Part shown: in pieces, positions 1 through 55,492 of the stretch | Layout of the letters: the number at the start of each line of letters is the position of its first letter | Numbering within the stretch: position 1 is the first letter of the stretch | Position numbers and translations under genes: made by a program | Origin: Escherichia coli | Lineage (GTDB): Bacteria; Pseudomonadota; Gammaproteobacteria; Enterobacterales; Enterobacteriaceae | NCBI RefSeq assembly: GCF_011045215.1 | Contig: NZ_CP049201.1 | Length of the DNA stretch: 64,000 nt | Strand: one strand, 5' to 3' | The notes under the pieces: model-generated | Databases searched by the model: none | What the model saw: only the letters and a program-made list of their open reading frames with translations | What the model was told of the DNA's origin: nothing

Positions 1-417
1 GCTGTAAACCGGCGGGTTAGGCAGATCGCTCGGCAACAAGTTGGTCGCAGCGTTAATCGCGGCCTGCACTTCCTGCTCGGCGACATCGAGCGGTAATGTT
101 AGCTGGAACTGCAAAGTGATAACTGACGCACCGCCGGAACTTTGCGACGACATCTGTTTCAGGCCAGACATCTGCCCGAACTGGCGTTCGAGCGGCGCGG
201 TAACGGCAGAGGTCATGACATCCGGGCTGGCACCTGGGTAGAGCGTGACCACCTGAATGGTCGGATAGTCCACTTCCGGCAGCGCCGAAACGGGCAGGGC
301 GCGATAACCGATAATCCCGGCGAGTAAGATCGCCACCATCAGCAGCGTGGTGGCGACAGGACGCATAATAAACAGGCGCGACGGGCCGCCTGTGCTGCTC
401 GGGGGTAACACCTGCAT
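1..417 (-). CDS. mdtB: Multidrug efflux RND transporter subunit MdtB, N-terminal part (5' partial; continues beyond window start)
   Basis: Reverse complement from 417 reads [19 protein letters not shown]..., matching MdtB N-terminus; ATG overlaps mdtA stop (ATGA). Not in ORF track because it runs off the window. Confidence 0.85.
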
Positions 418-1664
418 CAGGAGCGTGCTCCTTTTTTCGCGTATTCGCGGCTGGTGGCTTTCTCTTCCGGAGTGGTGGCGCTCTGGGCTTCCACCACTTC
501 CACTTTCGCCCCTTCGGTCAGGCGATCAATGCCGTCTGTCACCACGCGATCGCCCGCAGAAATACCTGCACGGATCACCACTTTCTGACTGTCCTGAATG
601 CCCGGCGTCACCAGATGTTTGCTGACCTTGTTTTCACTATTCAGCACCCAGACAAAATGGCCTTCATTGCCCATTTGCAGGGCGGCTGATGGGATCACTA
701 CGGCGTTTTGTTCGGTGTCGACTAACATGCGCGCGTTAACAAACTGATTGGGAAACAGCGCATCATCCTGATTATTAAAGCGTGCTTTCACTTTAATCGT
801 ACCGGTTGTGGCATCGATTTGGTTATCGAGGCTTAACAGCGTGCCTTCACTTAATTTCTTCGAGTTGGTGCGATCCCAGGCTTCTACCACCAGCGGTTTT
901 CCGGCTTTCTGCGCCTGCACGACGGTAGCGATATCGCTTTCCGGCAGGGTAAAGAGCAAATCGATAGGATGCGTCTGGGTGATCACCACGATCCCGGTGG
1001 TATCACCACTGGAGATTTGGTTACCAACATCAACCTGCTTGAGACCAACGCGACCATCGACTGGTGCGGTGATGCGGCTCCAGTCGAGTTGCAGCTGCGC
1101 GCTGGCGACGCTTGCTTCATCAGCCTTAATGGTGCCTTCGGTTTCACTGACCAGCGCCTGTTGGGCATCCAGCTCCTGACGGGATACGAGATTGGTTTTT
1201 GCCAGTTGCTGATAACGCGCCAGGTCACGGCGGGCGTTAGCAAGCGTGGCTTTATCTTTTGCCAGTTGGCCCTGGGCTTGTGCTAATGCAACTTTGAACT
1301 GGCTGGGGTCAATTTCTGCCAGTAAATCGCCTGCTTTGACCTGCTGGCCTTCCTGGAAATGTAACGCCATCAGTTGACCGTCCACGCGGCTGCGCACCGT
1401 AACAGTATTAGCGGCGGTAATGGTGCCAAGCCCGGTGAGGTAACGCGGAACTGCCTGTTCTACGGCGGTCGCCGCCTGAACCGGGGCTAATGGGCCGGAA
1501 CGCATACCACGGCGACCACCCGCTGGCGATTGCTGCGCTTGTTTCGTCGCCCCTGGGGCTGTACTCCGGGAGTCATTGCGGCCTTGCCAGAACCAGAATG
1601 CGGCGATGGCGGCGATAACCACCACGATTACGATTACCCAACGGGATTTATAACTGCCTTTCAT
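417..1664 (-). CDS. mdtA: Multidrug efflux membrane fusion protein MdtA
   Basis: Track ORF 417..1811; real start taken at internal [16 protein letters not shown] (ATG at 1664), giving 415 aa as in K-12 MdtA. HlyD/AcrA-like coiled-coil and lipoyl regions. Confidence 0.9.
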
Positions 1665-1899
1665 CGTTAAGAGTTTCTCTTCCTGAAACGTTTCGCGGAA
1701 TGATACTAGTGTAGCCAGCCAATAAGGGAGAAAAATGGAGGAATTATGAAACACTGTCTGGAATCGTCTGAATGACGGGCACATTTGCGAGCACGCATCC
1801 AGTAATAACACATGAAACTATTTTATCTACGCGTTAGCGATAGACTGCTTGCATGGCGAAAGGAGGTAAGCCGACGATTTCAGCGGGACGCTGAAACGG

Positions 1900-2045
1900 G
1901 AAAGCCCCTCCCGAGGAAGGGGCCATAAATAAGGAAAGGGTCATGATGAAGTGGATCATCATCGTGGTGCTCTTAGTCATAAGCTTCCCGGCTTACTAAG
2001 ACTACCAGGGCGGGGGAAACCCCGCTCTACCCTCACTCCTGAAAG
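1900..2045 (-). ncRNA. sib: Sib-family antisense sRNA (antitoxin) opposite ibs copy 1; ends approximate
   Basis: Established Sib/Ibs organisation (about 140-nt antisense RNA fully overlapping the toxin ORF); flanking GC-rich hairpins (gcccctccc/ggaagggg; gcgggggaaaccccgc). Boundaries inferred, not measured. Confidence 0.45.
1943..1999 (+). CDS. ibs: Ibs-family type I toxin, 18 aa (MMKWIIIVVLLVISFPAY)
   Basis: ATG preceded by aaggaaaggg RBS; hydrophobic peptide matching the IbsA/IbsB family; too short for the ORF track. Confidence 0.75.
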   Translation: MMKWIIIVVLLVISFPAY

Positions 2046-2227
2046 TATGCCTTCACGATAAGATTGTCAATCCGCAGGCTTTGCAGTCTGCGATCCTGCC
2101 AGCAAATATTCTTTGCGAGACGTTACGCAATAATCACACTGGAAACTATTTTATCCGCAAGTCAGCGATAGACTGCATGCATGGCGAAAGGAGGTAAGCC
2201 GACGATTTCAGCGGGATGCTGAAACGG

Positions 2228-2373
2228 GAAAGCCCCTCCCGAGGAAGGGGCCTTAAATAAGGAAAGGGTCATGATGAAGCTACTCATCATCGTGGTGCTC
2301 TTAGTCATTAGCTGGCCAGCTTACTAAGACTACCAGGGCGGGGGAAACCCCGCTCAACCCTCACTCCTGAAAG
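2228..2373 (-). ncRNA. sib: Sib-family antisense sRNA opposite ibs copy 2; ends approximate
   Basis: By homology of unit 2 to unit 1 (328-bp shift). Confidence 0.45.
2271..2327 (+). CDS. ibs: Ibs-family type I toxin, 18 aa (MMKLLIIVVLLVISWPAY)
   Basis: Same position within repeat unit 2; RBS ggaaaggg; IbsB-like peptide. Confidence 0.75.
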   Translation: MMKLLIIVVLLVISWPAY

Positions 2374-2555
2374 TATGCCTTCACGGTCAGATTGTCAATC
2401 TGCAGGCTTTGCAGTCTGCGATCCTGCCAGCAAATATTCTTTGCGAGACGTTACGCAATAATCACACTGGAAACTATTTTATCCGCAAGTCAGCGATAGA
2501 CTGCATGCATGGCGAAAGGAGGTAAGCCGACGATTTCAGCGGGATGCTGAAACGG

Positions 2556-2704
2556 GAAAGCCCCTCCCGAGGAAGGGGCCTTAAATAAGGAAAGGGTTAT
2601 GAGGAAGCACGTCATCATACTGGTGATACTCTTAGTGATTAGCTTCCAGGCTTACTAAGAACACCAGGGGGAGGGGGAAACCTCTCCCTAACCCTCACTC
2701 CTGA
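2556..2704 (-). ncRNA. sib: Sib-family antisense sRNA opposite ibs copy 3; ends approximate
   Basis: By homology of unit 3 to units 1 and 2. Confidence 0.4.
2599..2658 (+). CDS. ibs: Ibs-family type I toxin, 19 aa (MRKHVIILVILLVISFQAY)
   Basis: Same position in repeat unit 3; IbsA-like peptide with P->Q near C-terminus and single Met start. Confidence 0.65.
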   Translation: MRKHVIILVILLVISFQAY

Positions 2705-2878
2705 AATTATGTCACTCCGCCCTTAGTGTCAATCGACGGCTCTCCGTTCTTGCGAGGCGAATAGCAAAATTTTCTGCGCCGCCGGGCCTAATTCTGAAAG
2801 TTTCTTCGTTTGCTCTTATTTCATTATTGCAGTCGGTATGATACCGGACCTCAATAATTCTCTAAGAAAGGATTTCTT

Positions 2879-3538
2879 ATGAGCGAACAAATCACGTTTG
2901 CCACCAGCGATTTTGCCAGTAACCCGGAACCACGTTGCCCCTGCATTCTGCTGCTGGATGTTTCTGGCTCGATGAGTGGCAGACCTATTAATGAACTTAA
3001 CGCCGGATTGGTTACCTTTCGTGATGAACTGCTTGCTGATCCGCTGGCTTTAAAAAGAGTGGAACTCGGCATTGTGACGTTCGGCCCGGTGCATGTGGAA
3101 CAACCCTTTACCAGCGCCGCTAATTTTTTTCCGCCCATCCTGTTTGCCCAGGGCGATACACCAATGGGTGCGGCCATTACCAAAGCCCTGGATATGGTAG
3201 AGGAGCGGAAACGTGAGTATCGTGCAAATGGTATTTCGTATTATCGCCCGTGGATTTTCCTGATTACCGATGGTGCACCAACCGATGAGTGGCAGGCTGC
3301 AGCCAACAAAGTGTTTCGGGGGGAAGAAGATAAAAGGTTTGCTTTCTTTTCCATCGGTGTTCAGGGGGCGGATATGAAGACGCTGGCACAAATTAGCGTT
3401 CGTCAGCCTTTGCCTCTGCAAGGATTACAATTCCGTGAACTGTTTAGCTGGTTATCCAGTTCGCTGCGTTCGGTTTCCCGCTCCACGCCGGGAACGGAAG
3501 TTGTGCTGGAAGCGCCAAAAGGCTGGACGTCAGTGTGA
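2879..3538 (+). CDS. yegL: von Willebrand factor A (vWA) domain protein YegL
   Basis: 219 aa; MIDAS-like motif [11 protein letters not shown] near N-terminus; matches K-12 YegL length and sequence. Confidence 0.9.
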
Positions 3539-18545: not shown

Positions 18546-18584
18546 CAGTGTATTGGTAGCTAGAAAGCCAGGGGCGGTAGCGTG
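18546..18584 (+). promoter_or_regulatory. JUMPstart element with ops site (GGCGGTAGCGTG), RfaH-dependent antitermination signal in the cps leader
   Basis: cagtgtattggtagctagaaagccaggggcggtagcgtg; ops at 18573..18584; about 180 bp upstream of wza. Confidence 0.85.
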
Positions 18585-32924: not shown

Positions 32925-33112
<188 letters not shown>

Positions 33113-33202
33113 AATGAATGCGAAACCGCGGTGTAAATAACGACAAAAATAAAATTGGCCGCTTCGGTCAGGGCCAACTATTGCCTGAAAAAGGGTAACG
33201 AT

Positions 33203-34573
33203 ATGAAAAAATTAACCTGCTTTAAAGCCTATGATATTCGCGGAAAACTAGGCGAAGAACTGAATGAAGATATCGCCTGGCGCATTGGTCGCGCCTATGG
33301 CGAATTTCTCAAACCGAAAACCATTGTGTTAGGCGGTGATGTCCGCCTCACCAGCGAAACCTTAAAACTGGCGCTGGCGAGAGGTTTACAGGATGCGGGC
33401 GTCGATGTGCTGGATATTGGCATGTCCGGCACCGAAGAGATCTATTTCGCCACGTTCCATCTCGGCGTGGATGGCGGCATTGAAGTTACCGCCAGCCATA
33501 ACCCGATGGATTATAACGGCATGAAACTGGTGCGCGAAGGGGCTCGCCCGATCAGCGGCGATACCGGACTGCGCGACGTCCAGCGTCTGGCAGAAGCTAA
33601 CGACTTCCCTCCAGTCGATGAAACCAAACGCGGTCGCTATCAGCAAATCAATCTGCGTGACGCTTACGTTGATCACCTGTTCGGTTATATCAACGTCAAA
33701 AACCTCACGCCGCTCAAGCTGGTGATCAACTCAGGTAACGGCGCGGCGGGTCCGGTGGTGGACGCCATCGAAGCCCGCTTTAAAGCCCTCGGCGCACCGG
33801 TGGAATTCATCAAAGTGCACAATACGCCGGACGGCAATTTCCCCAACGGTATTCCTAACCCCCTGCTGCCGGAATGCCGCGACGACACCCGCAATGCGGT
33901 CATCAAACACGGCGCGGATATGGGCATTGCCTTTGACGGTGATTTTGATCGCTGTTTCCTGTTTGACGAAAAAGGGCAGTTTATCGAGGGCTACTACATT
34001 GTCGGCCTGTTGGCAGAAGCATTCCTCGAAAAAAATCCCGGCGCGAAGATCATCCACGATCCACGTCTCTCCTGGAACACCGTTGATGTGGTGACTGCTG
34101 CTGGCGGCACGCCGGTGATGTCGAAAACCGGACACGCCTTTATTAAAGAACGTATGCGCAAGGAAGACGCCATCTACGGTGGCGAAATGAGCGCTCACCA
34201 TTACTTCCGTGATTTCGCTTACTGCGACAGCGGCATGATCCCGTGGCTGCTGGTGGCCGAACTGGTGTGCCTGAAAGGAAAAACGCTGGGCGAACTGGTG
34301 CGCGACCGGATGGCAGCGTTTCCGGCAAGCGGTGAGATCAACAGCAAACTGGCGCAACCCGCTGAGGCGATTAATCGCGTCGAACAGCATTTTAGCCGTG
34401 AGGCGCTGGCGGTGGATCGCACCGATGGCATCAGCATGACCTTTGCCGACTGGCGCTTTAACCTGCGCTCCTCCAACACCGAACCGGTGGTGCGGTTGAA
34501 TGTGGAATCGCGCGGTGATGTGCCGCTGATGGAAGCGCGAACGCGAACTCTGCTGACGTTGCTGAACGAGTAA
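33203..34573 (+). CDS. cpsG: Phosphomannomutase
   Basis: Track ORF 33155..34573; start set at ATG 33203 ([15 protein letters not shown]), 456 aa; TASHNP active-site motif. Confidence 0.93.
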
Positions 34574-37530: not shown

Positions 37531-37716
37531 GCCGGATGCGGCGTAAAACGCCTTATCCATCCTACGGTTCTGTGCTCGGGACCTGTAGGCCTGATAAGAC
37601 GCGTCAGCGTCGCATCAGGCACTGAATGCCGGATGCGGCGTGAACGCCTTATCCGGCCTACGGTTCTGTGCTCGGGTCTTGTAGGCCTGATAAGACGCGT
37701 CAGCGTCGCATCAGGC
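37531..37716. repeat. BIME cluster (multiple REP palindromes) between wzxC and wcaK
   Basis: Repeated gccggatgcggcgtgaacgccttatccggcctacggttctgtgctcggg and gtaggcctgataagacgcgtcagcgtcgcatcaggc units. Confidence 0.85.
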
Positions 37717-43075: not shown

Positions 43076-43969
43076 ATGACGAATTTAAAAGCAGTTATAC
43101 CGGTAGCAGGTCTTGGGATGCATATGTTGCCTGCCACTAAGGCGATTCCCAAAGAGATGCTACCGATCGTCGACAAGCCAATGATTCAGTACATTGTTGA
43201 CGAGATTGTGGCTGCAGGGATCAAAGAAATCCTCCTGGTAACTCACGCGTCCAAGAACGCAGTCGAAAACCACTTCGACACCTCTTATGAATTAGAATCT
43301 CTCCTTGAACAGCGCGTGAAGCGTCAACTGCTGGCGGAAGTACAATCTATCTGTCCGCCGGGCGTGACCATTATGAACGTGCGTCAGGGTGAACCTTTAG
43401 GTTTAGGCCATTCCATTTTGTGTGCACGACCCGCCATTGGTGACAACCCATTTGTCGTGGTGCTGCCAGACGTTGTGATCGACGACGCCAGTGCCGACCC
43501 GCTGCGCTACAACCTTGCTGCCATGATTGCGCGTTTCAATGAAACGGGCCGTAGCCAGGTGCTGGCAAAACGTATGCCGGGTGACCTTTCTGAATACTCC
43601 GTTATTCAGACCAAAGAGCCGCTGGATCGTGAAGGCAAAGTCAGCCGCATTGTTGAATTTATCGAAAAACCGGATCAGCCGCAGACGCTGGACTCAGACA
43701 TCATGGCCGTTGGTCGCTATGTGCTTTCTGCCGATATTTGGCCGGAACTTGAACGCACTCAACCTGGTGCATGGGGACGTATCCAACTGACTGATGCCAT
43801 TGCTGAACTGGCGAAGAAACAGTCCGTTGATGCCATGCTGATGACTGGTGACAGCTACGACTGCGGTAAAAAAATGGGCTATATGCAGGCGTTTGTGAAG
43901 TATGGACTGCGCAACCTGAAAGAAGGGGCGAAGTTCCGTAAAGGGATTGAGAAGCTGTTAAGCGAATAA
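43076..43969 (+). CDS. galF: UTP-glucose-1-phosphate uridylyltransferase regulatory paralogue GalF
   Basis: 297 aa, matches GalF. Confidence 0.95.
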
Positions 43970-44227
43970 TGAAAATCTGACCGGATGTAACGGTTGATAA
44001 GAAAATTATAACGGCAGTGAAGATTCGTGGTGAAAGTAATTTGTTGCGAATATTCCTGCCGTTGTTTTATATAAACAATCAGAATAACAACGAGTTAGCA
44101 ATAGGATTTTAGTCAAAGTTTTCCAGGATTTTCCTTGTTTCCAGAGCGGATTGGTAAGACAATTAGCGTTTGAATTTTTCGAGTTTAGCGCGAGTAGGTA
44201 ACGCTAGTCACATCGTAGACATGTAAG

Positions 44228-44266
44228 CAGTGCTCTGGTAGCTGTAAAGCCAGGGGCGGTAGCATT
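44228..44266 (+). promoter_or_regulatory. JUMPstart element with variant ops site (GGCGGTAGCATT) in the O-antigen cluster leader
   Basis: cagtgctctggtagctgtaaagccaggggcggtagcattg, about 350 bp upstream of the first O-antigen gene; last ops positions differ from canonical GGCGGTAGCGTG. Confidence 0.75.
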
Positions 44267-44618
44267 GTTCTTGATATTTTTAAGTATAAAAATGACACAT
44301 AAAAATAAAATAATTAGTTATCGGTATGTTTTTAATTGTGTTATTATTGAAAAATATCACCATTAATTATTTAATGCGATAAAGGCCAAATAAATCACTC
44401 ATTTATTTCTACATAGGATAGGGGACTATCAGATGGGAATTAAATAAAAATCCAAGTGCTAAATATTTCAATCTTAAATTCCATTGTAAAAAGTTTAAGG
44501 GATTTTATTCTAAAAAAGAATTGGATGAATTGAAAGTTATTTTGAGCTTAATTTATTAAACTTGAAGTTTTTTTACTGAGTTTTTCTGAAAAATAATTTA
44601 TTGTTAATGGAGCCATAT

Positions 44619-45638
44619 ATGTCAATTTTAGTTACCGGAGGTTGTGGTTATATAGGTGTCCACACAATTTATACGTTAATTTCTCAGGGCTACGATGTTA
44701 TTGTACTGGATAACCTGACTAACTCATCAATAGAGTCATTAGAGAGAGTCAAGTTAATGACAAATCATAACATACCCTTTTATAAAGGAGATGTGGGGAA
44801 TAAAAAAATATTGGTAGACATATTCAATGAGCATCAAATAAAAGCGGTTATGCATTTTGCAGGCTTGAAATCAGTAAGTGAATCTATAAAAAAACCGATT
44901 GAATATTATTCAAGTAACGTAATGCAAACGTTATCACTAATATCTACAATGATAGAGTATAACGTAAAAAGCTTTATCTTTAGTTCATCTGCTACTGTAT
45001 ATGGTAAACCAAAGTTATGCCCTATAAATGAAACTCATCCTATTGGCAAAACTACAAATCCTTATGGAACATCAAAATTAATGATGGAGTTAATGTTGTC
45101 TGATTTGTGTAATGCATATGATGATTTTAATGTGACAATTTTACGATATTTTAATCCAATTGGTGCTCATGAATCAGGTAATATTGGTGAACATCCAAAC
45201 GGTATACCAAATAACCTATTTCCTTATCTTACAAAAGTTGCTATTGGAGAGTATCCTTATTTAAAAGTGTATGGTTGTGATTACCCAACGTCTGATGGTT
45301 CTGGTGTTCGAGATTATATTCATGTAGTTGATCTTGCTGAAGCACATGTAAAAGCTTTATCAAAAAATTCAGAGTCGACTGGGCTAAAAATTTATAATTT
45401 AGGAACCGGAAAAGGATATTCTGTACTCGAAGTTATAGAAGCTTTTGAAAAGATAACTGGAATCAAAATACCATATAAAATTATGCCTCGAAGGGATGGT
45501 GATGTTGCGGAGTGTTGGTCTGATAGCACGAAGGCAAATGATAAATTAGAATGGAAAGCAAACAGAGAATTATATGACATGATTAGAGACGCTTGGAATT
45601 GGCAATCAAAAAATCCTCATGGTTATGATAATACATGA
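44619..45638 (+). CDS. UDP-hexose 4-epimerase, GalE family
   Basis: Start taken at ATG 44619 after ggag RBS (track begins at TTG 44601); ILVTGGCGYIG Rossmann motif and YGTSK catalytic motif; AT-rich codon usage. Confidence 0.8.
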   Translation: MSILVTGGCGYIGVHTIYTLISQGYDVIVLDNLTNSSIESLERVKLMTNHNIPFYKGDVGNKKILVDIFNEHQIKAVMHFAGLKSVSESIKKPIEYYSSNVMQTLSLISTMIEYNVKSFIFSSSATVYGKPKLCPINETHPIGKTTNPYGTSKLMMELMLSDLCNAYDDFNVTILRYFNPIGAHESGNIGEHPNGIPNNLFPYLTKVAIGEYPYLKVYGCDYPTSDGSGVRDYIHVVDLAEAHVKALSKNSESTGLKIYNLGTGKGYSVLEVIEAFEKITGIKIPYKIMPRRDGDVAECWSDSTKANDKLEWKANRELYDMIRDAWNWQSKNPHGYDNT

Positions 45639-46003
45639 TGTTATAGTATATTCAATGAATATAATTTATGCTTTGGAGTAAAAGTTGTCACAGCGTTTTC
45701 TTGCAGAACTAAGATGTTTTTAGCATAATTAGACACAGAATTAAAAATATTATCAGGCCGTATCAGTACATATCTTCAGTATGCACTATCATATATTAAT
45801 ATGAGAAAATATTTGTATTTAAAATATGATGTTCTAATAAGATTAAATTAACTGCCTAGGATATTAAAAGCTAATTTGGACTAGCTTTATTAGATAAGTA
45901 AATCTAACAAAATATTACTATGTCCGATATGTTATACCACTATTAATGACATCATGTAATATTATTTTAATAAACTATTTTTTGATCGCAGAGGTAATTA
46001 TAA

Positions 46004-46399
46004 ATGAGAAGAGTTATCACCTTTGGAACATTCGACGTGTTTCATATTGGACATGTTAATATATTAAAAAGGGCGAAGGAGTTTGGTGATTTGCTGATTG
46101 TGGGAGTTTCATCCGATTCATTAAATTTTTCTAAAAAACAGCGTTATCCAATCTATAGCCAGGAGGAGCGCATTGAGATTATATCCTCACTTAAGTTTGT
46201 AGATCATGTCTTTATAGAAGAATCTTTAGATCTTAAGTTAGAATATATTAGAAAGTATGAGGCAAATTTACTTGTAATGGGAGATGATTGGAAGGGCAGA
46301 TTTGACTGGGTTAAAGATGAGTGCGAAGTTATTTATTTGCCCAGAACACCATCGATATCAACTACCGAGATTATAGAAATTGTCCGGAGAATAAAATGA
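46004..46399 (+). CDS. Glycerol-3-phosphate cytidylyltransferase (TagD/TarD-like; makes CDP-glycerol)
   Basis: 131 aa; ITFGTFDVFHIGHVNIL (HxGH nucleotidyltransferase motif) and ...MGDDWKGRFDW...EVIYLPRTPSISTTEI, closely resembling Bacillus TagD. Confidence 0.85.
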   Translation: MRRVITFGTFDVFHIGHVNILKRAKEFGDLLIVGVSSDSLNFSKKQRYPIYSQEERIEIISSLKFVDHVFIEESLDLKLEYIRKYEANLLVMGDDWKGRFDWVKDECEVIYLPRTPSISTTEIIEIVRRIK

Positions 46400-46471
46400 T
46401 AACTCATTTGTTGATAGTGATTTATATTGTATAATTAATATTATGTAAAATGATATATATGGCAAATACAA

Positions 46472-47773
46472 ATGACGTCATGTAATAACTTTAAAAAGTA
46501 TAAAACATTATCTTTATTATCCGTGTGTTTATCCTCTATTCGTGTCTTTTTGGGGCCAATAACATTACTTGTACTAGCCAAAAACCTTTCCACTGAGGAA
46601 CTAGGATTTTATTATGCTTTTTTTTCGTTAACAGCAATGGCACAGTTGCTGGAAGTTGGGATGTCTAGCGTATTGAAACAGTATTATAGCCATTCTTATG
46701 CTATTCATGATATCAGTGAAAAAAATATAAAAATATCGAACTATTTTAACTTTTCAATCTATTGGTATTTAATATTATCAATACTTTTTTTTATATTGGG
46801 AGGGGTGGTGTCATATGTTATGTTTAATGATTATAACGGAATAGTTAACTGGAAATTACCATGGTTTTTTTTGCTTTTTGTTTCATGTACTAATTTATTA
46901 GTATTGCCCTTAAATGCAATGCTTGATGGAACACAAAGGCAACAATTATTGATGAAAGCTAATATTGTTAGTCAGTTAATGATAGCGATATCATTATGGC
47001 TGACAATTTATTTAGGCTTGGGGCTATATTCTCTTGGTCTATCACAATTGGTAGGAATATTATTTTTTTTACTGTCAGTTTTTATATTTAATAAATGTAG
47101 ATTCCAGTTCATAGAAATACATAAAAAAAACTTTTCATTTAAAACAGTATTTAATGAGTTGTGGCCGTTATTGAAAAAAACTAGTATCGTATGGTTTCTT
47201 GGTTATTTCTACTGGAACGGTTTTAATATAATATCATTTAAATATCTTGGTGCAGAGATCGCAGGCTTCGTTGGTATGTCGATGTCAATTATGCGAGCGG
47301 GACAGAATATAGCAATATCTATTTTGAATTCTCAGATGACATTGTATGCAAGCAATATTGCGATGGGAAAGATTGATGAAGCAAGAAGAGTATTTAAGAA
47401 ATATTTTATCATTTCATTTTTGTTATTAATTTCTGGTTACTCAATATTTTATATTTTCTATTATGTTAAGCCTGATTTTTTCTTGTTTAAGAAGGTCCTG
47501 CCCTTAGAACAAATGATTTATGTGTCAATATTTTTTGCCTTTACATTTATAATATCAGGAACTGAAACTTTTATTCGTTGTTTTAAAGTGGAGAAGTTCG
47601 TTATCACTCAGACAATCAATTCAATTTTAACTCCATTCTTATTTGTTTTGGGGCTTAACTTGCATTATCAATATTTTTGTTTACCAATAATATCTGTACT
47701 GATAGTGTCAATCTTAACGTTATATATAAGTCGACGTTTTTACACGGGGTATTCGAATGCAAAAAATACTTAA
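46472..47773 (+). CDS. wzx: O-antigen flippase Wzx (polysaccharide biosynthesis protein family)
   Basis: 433 aa, many predicted TM helices; N-terminal Wzx-like segment FLGPITLLVLAKNLSTEELGFYY. Confidence 0.7.
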   Translation: MTSCNNFKKYKTLSLLSVCLSSIRVFLGPITLLVLAKNLSTEELGFYYAFFSLTAMAQLLEVGMSSVLKQYYSHSYAIHDISEKNIKISNYFNFSIYWYLILSILFFILGGVVSYVMFNDYNGIVNWKLPWFFLLFVSCTNLLVLPLNAMLDGTQRQQLLMKANIVSQLMIAISLWLTIYLGLGLYSLGLSQLVGILFFLLSVFIFNKCRFQFIEIHKKNFSFKTVFNELWPLLKKTSIVWFLGYFYWNGFNIISFKYLGAEIAGFVGMSMSIMRAGQNIAISILNSQMTLYASNIAMGKIDEARRVFKKYFIISFLLLISGYSIFYIFYYVKPDFFLFKKVLPLEQMIYVSIFFAFTFIISGTETFIRCFKVEKFVITQTINSILTPFLFVLGLNLHYQYFCLPIISVLIVSILTLYISRRFYTGYSNAKNT

Positions 47774-48929
47774 GTATATAATGAAATTAATGATGTGGAG
47801 TATTTATCCTATCGGTTTTTTAATTAAAAGGGATAAAAGCATTTGGCTTTTCGGTAGTTATAGCGGTTTTACTGATAATAGTCGATATTTATTTGAATCT
47901 ACCACTAAAAAGAATGATGTAAGATGCATTTGGATATCTGATGATATAAAGCTGATAAAAAAAATTAGATGTAAAGGTTATGAGGCATATTACAAATATA
48001 GTGTTAAAGGTATATATTTTTGTTATATTGCAAAGGTGTATATATATTCAAATTATGTATCAACGATAAACTTTTATACATCTGCAGGCGCGGTATTGGT
48101 AAATTTATGGCATGGGACGCCACTTAAAAAAATCGAATATGATATATCTAAATCTCCTTTATTTAATTATTTTAAAGGAGCCTCATTTATAATTAAAATA
48201 TTGATGCCTGAGAAACATAAAAAGTGTAATTTCATTCTTGCTCCGAGTCAATTTGTTTATGATTATTCATTTAAAAGTGCATTTAGGGTGTATGATATGC
48301 AATATGCCATTATTGCTGATCCACCTAGGATATCTAATCTCTTATCAAGAGCCTATCACAAAGTGAATAATGATAAGAATTCAATTAAAAAAACAAAGAA
48401 AACATTTTTATATGCACCAACATGGAGAGATGATCGCTCGGATTTTATAAGTATTTCAGGTTTAAATTTCAACGAAATTAATAATTTTCTATTAAAAAAT
48501 AACGCGTATTTACAAATCAGGTTGCATCCTAATACAACTTTAAATATTGATATGAGTGAAATGGAAAATATTCACATTGTTGATAATTATGAACCAGCTG
48601 AAGATAGTATGCTAAATTCTGATTTTCTCATAACTGATTACTCTTCAATATATTTTGACTACCTCTATCTTAATAGACCTATAATCTTCTTCCCATTTGA
48701 TCTTGAAAAATATACCGCATCGCGTGATTTTTATTTGAGTTATAACGAAGCAACTCCAGGGGTTAAAGTATATAATCAAGGTGAATTAATCCAGGAGATG
48801 GATAACCTATTGAAGGGCATTGACAATTGGATGAACTATCGAAAGGAGCTTGCTGAAAAATTCTGTTCGCTCGAAAGACGTAACGATGATTATATCATAA
48901 AAAAAATTAAAAAAGGTGTATCTGAATGA
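47757..48929 (+). CDS. CDP-glycerol glycerophosphotransferase (TagF/TagB-like)
   Basis: 390 aa; YAPTWRDD motif typical of the TagF family; directly downstream of the tagD-like gene. Confidence 0.7.
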   Translation: MQKILKYIMKLMMWSIYPIGFLIKRDKSIWLFGSYSGFTDNSRYLFESTTKKNDVRCIWISDDIKLIKKIRCKGYEAYYKYSVKGIYFCYIAKVYIYSNYVSTINFYTSAGAVLVNLWHGTPLKKIEYDISKSPLFNYFKGASFIIKILMPEKHKKCNFILAPSQFVYDYSFKSAFRVYDMQYAIIADPPRISNLLSRAYHKVNNDKNSIKKTKKTFLYAPTWRDDRSDFISISGLNFNEINNFLLKNNAYLQIRLHPNTTLNIDMSEMENIHIVDNYEPAEDSMLNSDFLITDYSSIYFDYLYLNRPIIFFPFDLEKYTASRDFYLSYNEATPGVKVYNQGELIQEMDNLLKGIDNWMNYRKELAEKFCSLERRNDDYIIKKIKKGVSE

Positions 48930-49732
48930 ATCTTGGTAAAATTATAAATTATATAGAGTCTAAGGTTATTAGTATAAATTTTGATTTCAATCATTTAGCT
49001 GGCTATTTAAGTCGTGATGAGCGAGATAAAATAACCTTAAAACATCTAAGCAGTATTATTGATAGAAGAAAAAAACATCCATCTGTTTCTGCTATATACA
49101 GAGTGAAAAATGGAGCTCAATTTATTGAACTATCTATTCTTTCAATAGCTGCATTTTGTCGTGAAATAATTATTGTAGACAATAATTCAACAGATGATAC
49201 TTTACTAATAGTAGAACGTCTTAAAAGCGAACTTCAGGAAATATGTGAAATTAAAATCTATCAGTATACTAGTCAGGTCGCTTTGGCGGGTAAGAATTAT
49301 AATGATGAAATCAGAAAATATCCTGAGCGGTCATTGGCAAAATATTATAACTATGCTTTTTCATTGGCAACATCGGAATTCTTAATGAAGTGTGATGCTC
49401 ATTATATATTCACACCTGCGGGTATAGATAGTATACAACGAAAATTAATTTCAAATCATAAGTCAGTTGATGTTATATGTTATCGTGGCACCGAAGTATT
49501 TGGAGCCATGTTAGATTGTGAACCCTATCTAATACGGAAAAATAGTTTTAAATATTACGACACTCAATATTTTGAACGTTTGACATTAAACAAGAAGAGA
49601 AGTTTTATTCAAAAAATTAAAGGGAGAATTTCATCACCTTGCTTTATACATGTTAAACGTTTGAGTTATGTTAAGTCAGTTCATCTATGTGAAATAAACC
49701 CTGTGGAGTATATGTATAAAAATGATAATTAA
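48926..49732 (+). CDS. Putative glycosyltransferase (GT-A fold, family 2-like)
   Basis: 268 aa; SAIYRVKNGAQFIELSILSIAAF...IIVDNNSTDDT resembles the GT2 N-terminal signature; start overlaps previous stop. Confidence 0.55.
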   Translation: MNLGKIINYIESKVISINFDFNHLAGYLSRDERDKITLKHLSSIIDRRKKHPSVSAIYRVKNGAQFIELSILSIAAFCREIIIVDNNSTDDTLLIVERLKSELQEICEIKIYQYTSQVALAGKNYNDEIRKYPERSLAKYYNYAFSLATSEFLMKCDAHYIFTPAGIDSIQRKLISNHKSVDVICYRGTEVFGAMLDCEPYLIRKNSFKYYDTQYFERLTLNKKRSFIQKIKGRISSPCFIHVKRLSYVKSVHLCEINPVEYMYKNDN

Positions 49733-50951
49733 ATTACATAATATTTGCGTAACTGGGAAGAATGATAATCATGACGGGTCTTTTCGCCTACAAATATACT
49801 ATTTCCTATGTATTTTAATATCTATTCTATTTTTCAGTGCATACCCTTTGGTATCGTTACCTCTTATAGCTCTTTCAAGTCCATTTGTTAATAACTATGC
49901 AAGATGGACTATGTCACTATTAATGATTTTTTATTTTATTTTATTATACTCATCTATTACGCCTTTTTCAGACATAGCAGAGTATATGCTTATCTATAGA
50001 GGAGTAACCGATGTTGATATATTTAGTTTTGGTAGGTTTGGTGGTGGAATCGAGATCTTCATATTAGCTCTCATGCGCTTGGTGTATTTTATATCCGATG
50101 GCAATGAATATCTTTTTTTATTTTTTTGCTTTACTATTATTCAAATATTTCTTTTTGTATTTTGTTATCGTGTTAATCGTCGTTTATCATGTTTATATTT
50201 TTTAGTATTTAATCTTTCATATGCTTATTATTCTTTTAATGCATATTTTTTACGAAGCATGTTATCCGCGGTTTTTTTAATTAATGCCTTTTTGTTTATT
50301 TCTAAAAAAAAGTATGTGTATTATTTTTTTGCAATTATATCGCATTTGTCATCCGTCCTATATATAGGAGTATGGGAATATTTAAGGGCAAGAAATAAAA
50401 AATTAAAAATATGGGTTGCTAGTATGGCAACTGTAACTATTATATGTTGTTTTATTTTTTTGCGAGATAGGATTGAATTTTATTTATTTAAAAGCTCTGG
50501 AAATTCGATGGGGTATGTACAAGTTGTAACCATTGCTTTTAATTATATTTTGTGTTTGTTGTTATTATTCTTTTCAAATGCAAGAAAAGAATTGTCAACT
50601 CAAAGAATAATATTGTTTTTGACTTTTTTCTTTATCTTGGCCTTGGTAACTTATAAAATACCACAAAATTTTGGGATAAGAATCTCTATTTTGCTTTACG
50701 CACTATCACCGTTTTTCTTGTATCCACTTCTTACCTCCTGCAATGTAACAATATTAAATAAGATCAAATCGTTGTCTCTTTATATGATTGTTAACTGTTG
50801 CTTTCTCTTTGTTGTGTTATATAAGGGCGATGATATTTCAAATCACATGCGTTCAAATCCATTAGATACTAGTTTTATTGATTTATTAATAAAGGACATA
50901 GATTATTTTGTTAAAGGATATTATCCAGTAATATATTCTAGAGACGAATAA
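49722..50951 (+). CDS. wzy: O-antigen polymerase Wzy (putative)
   Basis: 409 aa, very hydrophobic and F/Y/I/L-rich polytopic membrane protein with no strong family signature, as is typical for Wzy. Confidence 0.6.
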   Translation: MIIKLHNICVTGKNDNHDGSFRLQIYYFLCILISILFFSAYPLVSLPLIALSSPFVNNYARWTMSLLMIFYFILLYSSITPFSDIAEYMLIYRGVTDVDIFSFGRFGGGIEIFILALMRLVYFISDGNEYLFLFFCFTIIQIFLFVFCYRVNRRLSCLYFLVFNLSYAYYSFNAYFLRSMLSAVFLINAFLFISKKKYVYYFFAIISHLSSVLYIGVWEYLRARNKKLKIWVASMATVTIICCFIFLRDRIEFYLFKSSGNSMGYVQVVTIAFNYILCLLLLFFSNARKELSTQRIILFLTFFFILALVTYKIPQNFGIRISILLYALSPFFLYPLLTSCNVTILNKIKSLSLYMIVNCCFLFVVLYKGDDISNHMRSNPLDTSFIDLLIKDIDYFVKGYYPVIYSRDE

Positions 50952-51238
50952 GGGACATTGTTTAGATGTGCAAGGTGGAAATGTATCAAAGAAAATTGTA
51001 GTTACTACAGTAACAGTTACTTTGTAAAGTATATTTCGGTAAAACCTGCAATAACCAAGGGCGCTAAACTCCCTAACAACTCCGCTAATGGAATTAGAAT
51101 TAGAGAGTGACGAGTTTAAATATGAGAGTTTAGGGTAATAGAACAAATTTTTAAGTTTATAGAGTAAGAACAGATTAAGTTAAGTTTGCTTATTTTATAA
51201 TAAGCTCTTTCTTAAACCATATATAGTATTATCTACAA

Positions 51239-51961
51239 TTGAGTGATATCAAATTGAATATTGAGATCGGTTTATCAGCGCTGAATTCAGGAATTTATAA
51301 AATTAAATTTCGTAATGATTATAATTATCTTATTATTCATCAGATTACTGATGAATGTGATTACTCTGATTATGTGGCATCTTTCCCTGAAAATGTTAGA
51401 TACATATCTTCATATGAGTCTGGGTTGTCCAAAAGTCGAAATATGGCCATTGAAAATGCAAAATACGATTATCTTTGGTTAATGGATGATGATATGGAAA
51501 TAGATGATGCGGCTTGGGATTATCTGACGAAATTTATTAGTGATTATAAAAATAGTCCTTTGCTGGTTGTTTCTCATTCATTGGCAAAAAAGTATAATAA
51601 TGAAAAAGAGAGGATTAAAAGATTGAATCCTATAACTGCTGCGGGAATTTGTTCTGTAGATATGATATTAAAAATTTCAGCACTGGACGGTATTAGATTT
51701 AACTCAGATTTTGGGTTAGGAGCTAAATATCCTTCCGGTGAGGAATATATTTTTGCATGTGATTTGATGAGAGCTGGAAAAAAAATATATAAATCTAATA
51801 AAATTTGCTCGAATCATCCTGACACGACTTCTAGTGATAAAACATATCCAAATAAAGACGCTTTTAGTACGAAGAAGAAAATGTTTAAAGTCGCAAATGG
51901 GAAATACTTAGGGAGCATTTTGTATATTGCTTTTGTTGTCAAAAAATTACTATATAAATAA
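51239..51961 (+). CDS. Putative glycosyltransferase family 2 (possible TTG start)
   Basis: 240 aa; DxD-like motif in KYDYLWLMDDDMEIDD; ORF opens right after an in-frame stop at 51224 and first in-frame start is TTG 51239, so start is uncertain. Confidence 0.55.
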   Translation: MSDIKLNIEIGLSALNSGIYKIKFRNDYNYLIIHQITDECDYSDYVASFPENVRYISSYESGLSKSRNMAIENAKYDYLWLMDDDMEIDDAAWDYLTKFISDYKNSPLLVVSHSLAKKYNNEKERIKRLNPITAAGICSVDMILKISALDGIRFNSDFGLGAKYPSGEEYIFACDLMRAGKKIYKSNKICSNHPDTTSSDKTYPNKDAFSTKKKMFKVANGKYLGSILYIAFVVKKLLYK

Positions 51962-52005
51962 TAATTTACATAATTTTATTTTTATATAATCTATTTATTG
52001 TCTAG

Positions 52006-53052
52006 ATGCCTATGAAAAAAGTATATATTTTTATTGATGATATATCCCGTTCCGGTGGCACAGAACGAGTTGCGACATTTCTCTCTAATCAAATGTTTTT
52101 ATCCGGATTTTCAGTCACACTAATATCATTAGCATTAGAAGGAGGGAATACATACTATCCGCTGCAACCCGGAGTCAAGTTAGAGGTTTTAAGTGAATCA
52201 ACATTATACGAATTGTTTCTTTTTTTAAGAAAAAATTCATGTGATGTGTTGATTTCTGTTTCCATGGGTAGTTTATCGTTTAAGCTTGCATGTTTACATT
52301 TTCTATTACGATTAAAATCTCGTCTTATTTTAAGTGAGCATGTGGCTTTTGAATCCTCATCAAAGTTCATTCGTTCTCTAAAATGGTTAAGCTATCAATT
52401 CGCTGATGATCTTGTATTATTGACAAAGCATGATTATAAATTGCTTAAGTCAAATGTTAGGGCTCATACTCACGTTATCAATAATGCTAGTGGTTTCGAA
52501 CAATTATCTGAATCTGTTCTTATTCAAAAGCAAAAGATAGTATTAGCAGTGGGACGTTTAACTTATCAGAAGGGGTTTGATAGGTTAATTCGTATTTGGG
52601 CTTCCATATCGGACAATCACGGTTGGGTTTTACGGATCGTAGGGGATGGAGAATTGCGTTCAGAACTACAAAAAATGATTGTTGACCTGAATGTTACACA
52701 TAATGTCCAACTTATACCAGCAACAAAATGTATAGAACAAGAATATACTAATGCAGCTATATTAGCTATGACTTCTCGCTATGAAGGACTACCATTGGTT
52801 CTTATAGAGGCTAAATCTTTTGGATTAGCAGCAGTCGCTTTTGATTGTAAAACAGGTCCTGCTGAAATTATTCATCACAAAAAAGATGGGTTCTTGATTA
52901 CTGAAGATAATGAACCTGAATTTTCATATCGTCTTCAGTCTTTAATGATCGATGATGTTTATCGAAACAAAATACAAAGTATGGCCTTAAGAAATGCTAA
53001 TGATTATTCTGTTGAAAAAATAAGTCGGCAGTGGTTGGAGTTAATATCATGA
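52006..53052 (+). CDS. Glycosyltransferase family 4 (GT-B fold)
   Basis: 348 aa; C-terminal motif RYEGLPLVLIEAKSFGLAAVAFDCKTGPAEII typical of GT4 donor-binding region. Confidence 0.75.
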   Translation: MPMKKVYIFIDDISRSGGTERVATFLSNQMFLSGFSVTLISLALEGGNTYYPLQPGVKLEVLSESTLYELFLFLRKNSCDVLISVSMGSLSFKLACLHFLLRLKSRLILSEHVAFESSSKFIRSLKWLSYQFADDLVLLTKHDYKLLKSNVRAHTHVINNASGFEQLSESVLIQKQKIVLAVGRLTYQKGFDRLIRIWASISDNHGWVLRIVGDGELRSELQKMIVDLNVTHNVQLIPATKCIEQEYTNAAILAMTSRYEGLPLVLIEAKSFGLAAVAFDCKTGPAEIIHHKKDGFLITEDNEPEFSYRLQSLMIDDVYRNKIQSMALRNANDYSVEKISRQWLELIS

Positions 53053-53837
53053 GTAGTTATGAAACAGTATCTATAATCATGCCTACGTTTAATGCTGCAT
53101 CTTATATTTCGTATAGCATCATTTCTGTAATTGAACAATCATATAATGATTGGCATTTATATATAATAGATGATGGTTCAACTGACAATACCGCACATGA
53201 AATATCTAATTTTACCGATCTGCGAATAACATATGTAATGCTTCCTATCAATAGTGGAGTTGCAAATGCTAGAAATATAGGTATTAAAATGGCAAAAGGG
53301 AAATTTATTGCGTTTCTTGATAGTGATGACATTTGGGAAAAAGAAAAATTATCCTTGCAAATCCCTTTACTCGAAAAAGGATATGATGTAGTTTGTTCAA
53401 ATTATGCCATTTTTAAAAATGAACCAAAAAAAATAATCGGTTCTCGAACTGCACCACAACAGATCACCTATTCGCGTTTGTTACGCGGTAATTGTATCGG
53501 CAATTTAACGGGGATTTATAACCGAGAACGACTAGGTAAATGCTTACAGGAAGAATGTGGACATGAAGACTATCTAATGTGGTTACAGTTGGTAAAGCTT
53601 TCTGGTAGCGCTTATTGCATACAGAAAAATTTAGCCCGGTATCGAGTTACGGAACATTCAGTATCATCAAATAAATTAAAAGCAGCATTTTGGCAATGGA
53701 ATATATATCGTAAAAAACTCAAGCTTAATATTTTGAGCAGTATATATTACTGGTGTAATTATTCTTTTTACGCATTTATGCACATGTTAAAAATGAAGTT
53801 TCATGTGAATAAAAGTAATCTAATATATAAGAGATAA
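53049..53837 (+). CDS. Glycosyltransferase family 2
   Basis: Start set at ATG 53049 (MSSYETVSIIMPTFN; track begins at 53031); classic GT2 N-terminus ...IIDDGSTDNT; ATGA overlap with upstream gene. Confidence 0.8.
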   Translation: MSSYETVSIIMPTFNAASYISYSIISVIEQSYNDWHLYIIDDGSTDNTAHEISNFTDLRITYVMLPINSGVANARNIGIKMAKGKFIAFLDSDDIWEKEKLSLQIPLLEKGYDVVCSNYAIFKNEPKKIIGSRTAPQQITYSRLLRGNCIGNLTGIYNRERLGKCLQEECGHEDYLMWLQLVKLSGSAYCIQKNLARYRVTEHSVSSNKLKAAFWQWNIYRKKLKLNILSSIYYWCNYSFYAFMHMLKMKFHVNKSNLIYKR

Positions 53838-54085
53838 CAAGATATATAGTGTTAATTGTCACCTTCATTATATAAAGTAGATTAATTTGCGATGGTGACT
53901 TTTACATTAACATCGAAGTAAATATTGAGATAAATATTATACAATATTAATAATATGTTATGAATTTAAATTTTATTTTGAATTGCCCAATAATATTTTT
54001 TTAAATTATTACTTTAAGTAGTCATTTTAGGTTAATATATTACCGTTAAGCAAACCATGCAGTATATTACTGACAGGAGTAAACA

Positions 54086-55492
54086 ATGTCAAAGCAACAG
54101 ATTGGCGTCGTCGGTATGGCAGTGATGGGGCGCAACCTTGCGCTCAACATCGAAAGCCGTGGTTATACCGTCTCTATTTTCAACCGTTCCCGTGAGAAGA
54201 CGGAAGAAGTGATTGCCGAAAATCCAGGCAAGAAATTGGTTCCTTACTTTACGGTAAAAGAGTTTGTTGAATCTCTGGAAACGCCTCGTCGCATCCTGTT
54301 AATGGTGAAAGCAGGTGCAGGCACGGATGCTGCTATTGATTCTCTCAAGCCATACCTCGATAAAGGTGACATCATCATTGATGGTGGTAACACCTTCTTC
54401 CAGGACACCATTCGTCGTAACCGTGAGCTGTCTGCAGAAGGTTTTAACTTTATCGGTACTGGTGTTTCCGGTGGTGAAGAAGGTGCACTGAAAGGACCTT
54501 CCATCATGCCTGGTGGCCAGAAAGAAGCCTATGAACTGGTTGCACCGATCCTGACCAAAATCGCCGCAGTGGCTGAAGATGGGGAGCCATGTGTTACCTA
54601 TATTGGTGCCGATGGTGCTGGTCACTATGTGAAGATGGTTCACAACGGTATTGAATACGGAGATATGCAACTGATTGCTGAAGCCTATTCTCTGCTAAAA
54701 GGTGGCCTGAACCTCACCAACGAAGAACTGGCGCAGACCTTTACCGAGTGGAATAACGGTGAACTGAGCAGCTACCTGATCGACATCACCAAAGATATCT
54801 TCACCAAAAAAGATGAAGACGGTAACTACCTGGTTGATGTGATTCTGGATGAAGCTGCAAACAAAGGTACGGGTAAATGGACCAGCCAGAGTGCGCTGGA
54901 TCTCGGCGAACCGCTGTCGCTGATTACCGAGTCTGTGTTTGCACGTTATATCTCTTCTCTGAAAGATCAGCGCGTTGCCGCATCTAAAGTTCTCTCTGGC
55001 CCGCAAGCGCAGCCAGCAGGCGACAAAGGTGAGTTCATCGAAAAAGTTCGCCGTGCGTTGTATCTGGGCAAAATCGTTTCTTACGCCCAGGGCTTCTCTC
55101 AGCTGCGTGCGGCGTCTGAAGAGTACAACTGGGATCTGAACTACGGCGAAATCGCGAAGATTTTCCGTGCTGGCTGCATCATCCGTGCGCAGTTCCTGCA
55201 GAAAATCACCGATGCTTATACCGAAAATCCGCAGATCGCTAACTTGCTGTTGGCTCCATACTTCAAGCAAATTGCCGATGACTATCAGCAGGCGCTGCGT
55301 GATGTTGTTGCTTATGCAGTACAGAACGGTATCCCGGTTCCCACCTTCGCCGCTGCGGTTGCCTATTATGACAGCTACCGTGCCGCTGTTCTGCCTGCGA
55401 ACCTGATCCAGGCACAGCGTGACTATTTCGGTGCACATACTTATAAGCGCATTGATAAAGAAGGTGTGTTCCATACTGAATGGCTGGATTAA
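54086..55492 (+). CDS. gnd: 6-phosphogluconate dehydrogenase (decarboxylating)
   Basis: 468 aa; [15 protein letters not shown] Rossmann motif; matches Gnd. Confidence 0.96.

Follow-up and report, generated by a model that had tools for sequence, protein, structure and literature searches.

A probable three-unit Ibs/Sib type I toxin-antitoxin array between mdtA and yegL in an Escherichia coli genome

The intergenic region between mdtA and yegL in the analyzed Escherichia coli sequence (a 64-kb stretch of DNA, hereafter the window) very probably comprises three tandem Ibs/Sib type I toxin-antitoxin modules, which would operate by the antisense mechanism set out below. This assignment had been made in the first-pass annotation of the sequence and is upheld by three matches to the Rfam family SIB_RNA and by orthology with the K-12 locus. 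The array is itself already known, being a common, annotated and ordinary variant of E. coli. Its features, numbered along the window, are the following.

417..1664, minus strand: mdtA, flanking gene (start codon ATG at 1662–1664)
1784..2767, no strand assigned: three-unit Ibs/Sib array, 328 bp per unit (repeat search, Tandem Repeats Finder, unit alignment)
1784–2111: unit 1
2112–2439: unit 2
2440–2767: unit 3
1899..2034, minus strand: unit 1 Sib, SibB-type, 136 nt, +1G (RF00113, 140.1 bits at 1928–2070; K-12 sibB homology)
2227..2362, minus strand: unit 2 Sib, SibB-type, 136 nt (RF00113, 137.7 bits at 2256–2398)
2554..2696, minus strand: unit 3 SibA, 143 nt (RF00113, 142 bits at 2584–2732; alignments)
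1943..1999, plus strand: unit 1 ibs ORF, MMKWIIIVVLLVISFPAY, IbsB-like, identical to WP_012767741.1
2271..2327, plus strand: unit 2 ibs ORF, MMKLLIIVVLLVISWPAY, IbsB with F15W, identical to WP_100249772.1
2599..2658, plus strand: unit 3 ibsA ORF, MRKHVIILVILLVISFQAY, K-12 IbsA with M2R, identical to WP_071528451.1
2065..2070, minus strand: putative −35 TTGACA of the unit 1 Sib (read from the sequence; the Rfam model starts here)
2042–2047, minus strand: putative −10 TACTTT of the unit 1 Sib, after a 17-nt spacer, with +1 at 2034 (placed from the K-12 sibB 5′ end)
2393–2398, minus strand: putative −35 TTGACA of the unit 2 Sib
2727–2732, minus strand: putative −35 TTGACA of the unit 3 Sib
1873..1878, plus strand: candidate −10 of the unit 1 ibs, GACGAT (equivalents at 2201–2206 and 2529–2534)
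2879..3538, plus strand: yegL, flanking gene, vWA-domain protein

A direct-repeat search of this intergenic region detects three direct copies of 300 nt each (1784–2083, 2112–2411 and 2440–2739) at successive spacings of 328 nt, the other two copies displaying ungapped identities of 90% and 64% to copy 1. Tandem Repeats Finder reports a repeat at 1803–2711 with a period of 328, 2.8 copies, 91% matches and a score of 1472. The two methods agree with the three tandem 328-bp units described at the outset, which extend over 1784–2767. In the unit alignment, the sequence upstream of the ORF is almost invariant among the three units, and the Sib regions are 93% and about 80% identical between units.

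The minus strand of the array contains three matches to RF00113 (SIB_RNA) with scores of 142.0, 140.1 and 137.7 bits, each covering model positions 1–147, for a family whose gathering score is 56 bits. The E-values (2e-30 to 3e-29) are far beyond chance, and no further Sib copies were found within the 64-kb window besides those of the three array units. The ends of the RNAs were obtained by transferring the annotated ends of the K-12 sRNAs through the alignment. Each ibs ORF, together with its ribosome-binding site, lies wholly within the span of its Sib, and all three Sibs begin at G, in agreement with the +1G reported for K-12 sibA and sibB (PMC12956327). The three predicted folds are 3.3–4.7 standard deviations below those of shuffled sequences, with values of −60.2 kcal/mol (z −4.4) for the unit 1 Sib, which includes a terminator hairpin, and −61.3 kcal/mol (z −4.7) for the unit 2 Sib. 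The predicted architecture is family-like and consists of a closing stem, three hairpins, a single-stranded stretch and a terminator hairpin. The 5′ part of the unit 3 SibA is that of K-12 SibA except for an A-to-C change opposite M2R, which introduces an A·C mismatch in the third SibA hairpin; the mismatch is flagged by the Rfam match, and the overall predicted fold is kept.

On the plus strand, opposite each Sib, lies a hydrophobic ORF of 18–19 codons. All three ORFs are preceded by AAGGAAAGGG, with the Shine-Dalgarno AAGGA located 7 nt upstream of the ATG, and the three peptides that the first-pass annotation had read behind a ribosome-binding site are exact. The unit 1 and unit 2 peptides share 16 and 17 of 18 residues, respectively, with K-12 IbsB, and the unit 3 peptide shares 18 of 19 with K-12 IbsA. 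In place of the K-12 residues, the window has W4I5 in unit 1 (a 4-nt cluster in ibsB that converts Leu4-Leu5 to Trp-Ile), F15W in unit 2 (Phe15 to Trp) and M2R in unit 3 (ATGATG to ATGAGG in ibsA, Met2 to Arg). The Phe-to-Trp change and the single Met start noted earlier are therefore real alleles, already present in RefSeq as WP_100249772.1 and WP_071528451.1, whereas the supposed Pro-to-Gln substitution does not hold, as Gln17 is the normal residue of K-12 IbsA. The RefSeq name of all three peptides is type I toxin-antitoxin system Ibs family toxin. Because the peptides are below the minima of 20–30 aa for HMMs, their membership of the toxin family is assigned by RefSeq identity and by the 16–18 residues shared with K-12 IbsA and IbsB. 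The three peptides keep Leu11 and a basic residue at position 3, both reported as necessary for the activity of Salmonella IbsA (10.1101/2025.05.26.656083).

The toxin ORFs are indeed missing from the ORF track, as had been reported, but this is an effect of the length cut-off: at 18–19 codons they are shorter than the 20-codon floor (the ORF lister has a minimum of 20 aa), and PGAP annotates all three in identical arrays. The locus illustrates how very short toxin ORFs become invisible to length-thresholded ORF tracks, a point of small significance beyond correct annotation. Every unit additionally displays an ORF of 42–48 codons on the Sib strand (1834–1980, 2162–2308 and 2490–2618, minus strand) that begins within the Sib RNA and crosses the terminator. 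These are probably non-coding by-products of the repeat.

In the proposed mechanism, the plus strand of each 328-bp unit would yield a weakly transcribed mRNA for the 18–19-residue hydrophobic membrane peptide Ibs, and the minus strand would yield a constitutive antisense Sib of about 136–143 nt spanning the entire ORF and the ribosome-binding site. Sib and ibs mRNA would pair via TRD1, a loop inside the ORF, and TRD2, a single-stranded region opposite the Shine-Dalgarno and start codon, with a consequent translation block and RNase III-dependent decay of the ibs mRNA, and Ibs would be synthesized solely when Sib falls. We infer the transcription, toxicity, repression and specificity of the window units from published work on the K-12 and Salmonella homologues. 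In that work, Sib is a constitutive cis-antisense RNA whose pairing begins at two independent domains: TRD1, the loop of a hairpin that faces the 3′ portion of the ORF, and TRD2, which is single-stranded and faces the translation initiation region. Pairing leads to a translation block and RNase III-dependent decay (PMC2943612, PMC4147584). Overproduced Ibs causes membrane depolarization and a drop in ATP, as described for K-12 Ibs (PMC8309996) and Salmonella IbsA (10.1101/2025.05.26.656083). Complementarity between each window Sib and its own ibs is perfect by construction. For IbsC, the N-terminal residues are reported to be dispensable for toxicity (PMC8309996), and M2R is for this reason unlikely to abolish the toxicity of the unit 3 peptide.

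SibC/ibsC, the family member whose mechanism has been dissected (Han et al. 2010, PMC2943612), has the architecture predicted for the window Sibs, with a closing stem, three internal hairpins, single-stranded TRD2 and terminator, and its antisense RNA likewise covers the whole ORF and its ribosome-binding site. By contrast, SibC/ibsC is found in a single copy at another chromosomal locus, and its TRD1 and TRD2 sequences are unlike those of the window. SibC also starts with +1A and is NAD-capped in K-12, whereas the SibA/SibB type has a G start and is uncapped (PMC12956327).

Every Sib start has a TTGACA box upstream of it, followed after a 17-nt spacer by a weak putative −10 element, spaced right for the 5′ ends mapped in K-12. 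The −10 elements are weak (3 of 6 positions) and the U-tract of the terminator is short, with a GC-rich terminal hairpin predicted. A simple sigma-70 and terminator consensus scan of positions 1665–2878 reported no promoters or terminators for Sib or ibs. This blank outcome was taken to reflect the thresholds of the scan rather than a lack of the signals, since the orthologous K-12 sRNAs, whose sequences are the same, are annotated and expressed; given the blank scan, the weak −10 and the short U-tract, the assignment of the Sib and ibs promoters rests on K-12 homology. On the ibs side, GACGAT aligns with TACGAT upstream of the ibsC transcription start in the alignment with the K-12 ibsC upstream region, and Han et al. 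2010 (PMC2943612) mapped the ibsC mRNA start to a position 18 nt upstream of the SibC 3′ end. GACGAT might tentatively be taken as the −10 of the ibs promoter.

A comparison with K-12 MG1655 reveals which unit is additional. The same intergenic region in K-12 carries sibB/ibsB on the mdtA side and sibA/ibsA on the yegL side (Fozo et al. 2008, as cited in PMC2943612 and PMC4147584), in the same orientation and between the same flanking genes as the window array; the K-12 annotation thereby bears out the two copies that the first-pass annotation gave for this strain. In a pairwise alignment, the two intergenic regions are near-identical, except that the window has 327 bp, or one unit, that K-12 lacks, and the alignment of the units to each other and to K-12 that the first-pass annotation had suggested as a check likewise leaves one extra unit. 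Unit 1 differs from K-12 sibB/ibsB at only a handful of positions, and the core of unit 3 is identical to sibA/ibsA but for one ORF substitution. From these alignments, units 1 and 2 are IbsB-type paralogues and unit 3 is the ibsA/sibA orthologue, with unit 2 as the extra IbsB-type unit (327 bp) that the K-12 array is without. Decay of unit 3 into a pseudo-copy was rejected, because a single substitution separates it from K-12 sibA/ibsA over the stretch between the ORF and the Sib promoter, both included, and its Rfam score is the highest of the three. A derivation of the K-12 array from the window array via one simple crossover was also rejected: K-12 IbsB is a patchwork of stretches resembling unit 1 and stretches resembling unit 2, which suggests mosaic gene conversion.

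Of 5,426 complete E. coli genomes, 5,419 have a match to the 1301-bp region. Copy number was assessed in a sample of 60 evenly spaced records down the ranking of 5,422 matching records. Three annotated Ibs genes in one colinear match were found in 25 of the 60 (about 42%), O157:H7 included, and two copies in approximately 26 (about 44%), among them MC4100, Nissle 1917 and other K-12-like records. Four copies occur in approximately six of the sampled records (about 10%) and a single copy in one (about 2%). The number of records with an identity of at least 95% (2,283) is in line with the three-copy share of the sample. The third copy, put forward earlier as copy-number variation, is one unit more than in K-12, yet it is common, being present in about two-fifths of complete E. 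coli genomes. The copy number of Ibs/Sib units at the mdtA–yegL locus is a common E. coli polymorphism, ranging from one to four units, for which the simplest explanation is recombination among the 328-bp repeats, by unequal crossing-over and gene conversion.

The best match, NZ_AP022298.1, is 99.8% identical (3 mismatches in 1301 nt) and encodes three peptides identical to those of the window, in the same order and annotated by PGAP as Ibs family toxins. The frequency of the alleles was estimated with exact 61–63-mers centered on the variant codons. Up to 1,455 genome records contain the unit 1 63-mer and 499 the unit 2 61-mer, and the M2R ibsA 61-mer occurs in 66 of the 4,435 records that have an ibsA match. 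The unit 1 peptide also occurs in the arrays of O157:H7, O145:NM and TUM13770. In O157:H7 (NZ_CP038419.1) the order is MMKILIIVVLLVISYPAY, MMKWIIIVVLLVISFPAY and IbsA, so that the window unit 1 peptide corresponds to its second unit; TUM13770 (NZ_CP128916.1) has four units, of which the second and third correspond to window units 1 and 2 and are followed by ibsA. Both arrays differ from that of the window in their first unit, MMKILIIVVLLVISYPAY, which is absent from the window, and in their IbsA, which is wild-type and not M2R. O145:NM (NZ_CP031919.1) has four units at the mdtA–yegL locus. Lineage-specific duplications of the family are also described in PMC2887945, where O157:H7 Sakai is reported to have seven ibs genes versus five in K-12. 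The third copy and all three peptide alleles are thus known variation, with IbsA M2R alone uncommon. A Gambian stool isolate (NZ_CM128594.1) has one unit at the locus, whose lone ORF is annotated as 17 codons, MKWIIIVVLLVVSYPAY.

Two other explanations of the array were considered. The prevalence of the arrangement bears directly on whether the third copy might be an error of assembly, in which a tandem repeat was wrongly expanded. Short reads can mis-assemble 328-bp tandem repeats, but the units differ at diagnostic positions (93% and about 80% identity in the Sib region) and the three-unit arrangement appears as a single colinear alignment in roughly 2,280 complete-genome records, one of them 99.8% identical; we regard such an artefact as extremely improbable. 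An unlikely, though less remote, alternative is that the array is real and one of its units, either the extra unit 2 or unit 3 with the M2R ibsA, is an inactive relic, such that the locus acts as a K-12-like two-module system. Such a unit might have lost ibs promoter activity or peptide toxicity, or its Sib might fold or pair improperly. The ibs promoter elements are putative and weak, M2R leaves just the first of two in-frame Met codons as well as creating the mismatch in the third SibA hairpin, and K-12 ibsA is already atypical, in that cells deficient in SibA survive and non-cognate Sibs recognize ibsA (PMC2943612). Against this, all three units have full-length Sib scores, intact ORFs, Shine-Dalgarno sequences and TTGACA −35 boxes, and the region upstream of the ORF is almost invariant among them. 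Moreover, the occurrence of the unit 2 allele in 499 genome records and of M2R in 66 indicates that neither is a private lesion, and the dispensability reported for the N-terminal residues of IbsC (PMC8309996) argues against a loss of toxicity. Three probably functional modules are thus the preferred reading of the array.

Differences between the window units are concentrated in the Sib hairpin loops that determine target specificity (TRD1). TRD1 and TRD2 of SibC were placed on the window Sibs by alignment. The three Sibs differ at 3–5 of 23 positions in TRD1 and are almost identical in TRD2, across which units 1 and 2 share a perfect run of 26 nt. Over their final 43 nt, the Sibs of units 2 and 3 do not differ. 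This 3′ segment of the unit 3 Sib, which comprises the TRD2 region and terminator, is therefore of the unit 2 type instead of the K-12 SibA type, which points to inter-unit recombination. In K-12, SibA and SibB have merely a 14-nt perfect run in the TRD2 region, in contrast to the near-identity of TRD2 across the three window units. Only the base before the ATG distinguishes the upstream half of unit 3 (2440–2598), which holds the ibs 5′ region as well as the Sib terminator and TRD2, from 2112–2270 in unit 2, and several positions set this half apart from the K-12 sibA unit. It appears to represent a recombination or gene-conversion tract that homogenizes TRD2 across the array.

Variation among eleven IbsB-type units from six strains is concentrated in two loops, P5 (TRD1; codons 13–16) and P6 (codons 4–5), with one further variable position at the end of TRD2. 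It is reasonable to suppose that the substitutions touch on Sib specificity, as their positions fall in Sib hairpin loops including TRD1; the principle of hairpin-loop specificity is already published (Han et al. 2010, PMC2943612). In the same study, a contiguous helix of 22–25 bp through either TRD sufficed to retarget SibC. Given this result and the near-identity of TRD2 in the window, cross-repression of neighboring units through TRD2 is plausible for this allele.

A broader reading, which we consider doubtful, is that the units behave as shuffled cassettes: unequal crossing-over would reassort a limited stock of IbsB-type units, selection on P5/TRD1 and P6 of the Sib, and not on the peptide, would drive the changes at Ibs residues 4–5 and 15–16, and the nearly shared TRD2 and terminator would allow cross-repression that buffers the loss of any single Sib. 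Such buffering would contrast with K-12, where SibB to SibE are reported to be strictly specific for their cognate ibs. With TRD2 common to its three units, the window allele would offer a convenient natural test of TRD1 insulation versus TRD2 cross-protection, although the question is a modest and specialist one.

Elsewhere in the 64-kb window, an O-antigen gene cluster is located at 44200–53900, between galF (43076–43969) and gnd (54086–55492). It has a JUMPstart element at 44228–44266 and a GC content of 0.29–0.32, compared with about 0.53 in its surroundings. Its products include two glycosyltransferases, an epimerase of the GalE type, a flippase with a weak likeness to Wzx, and a TarF-like CDP-glycerol glycerophosphotransferase, the last a hint that glycerol phosphate is part of the O unit; the cluster ORFs at 49722–50951 and 51239–51961 gave no NCBIfam match. 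A second JUMPstart (18546–18584) heads the cluster at about 18700–43000, which is the colanic-acid (wza–wca) cluster by position and ORF layout. An algC RNA motif is found at 33149–33198, directly upstream of the ORF at 33155–34573, and naRNA4 (REP-type) matches are present on the minus strand at 32992–33062 and 37588–37658.
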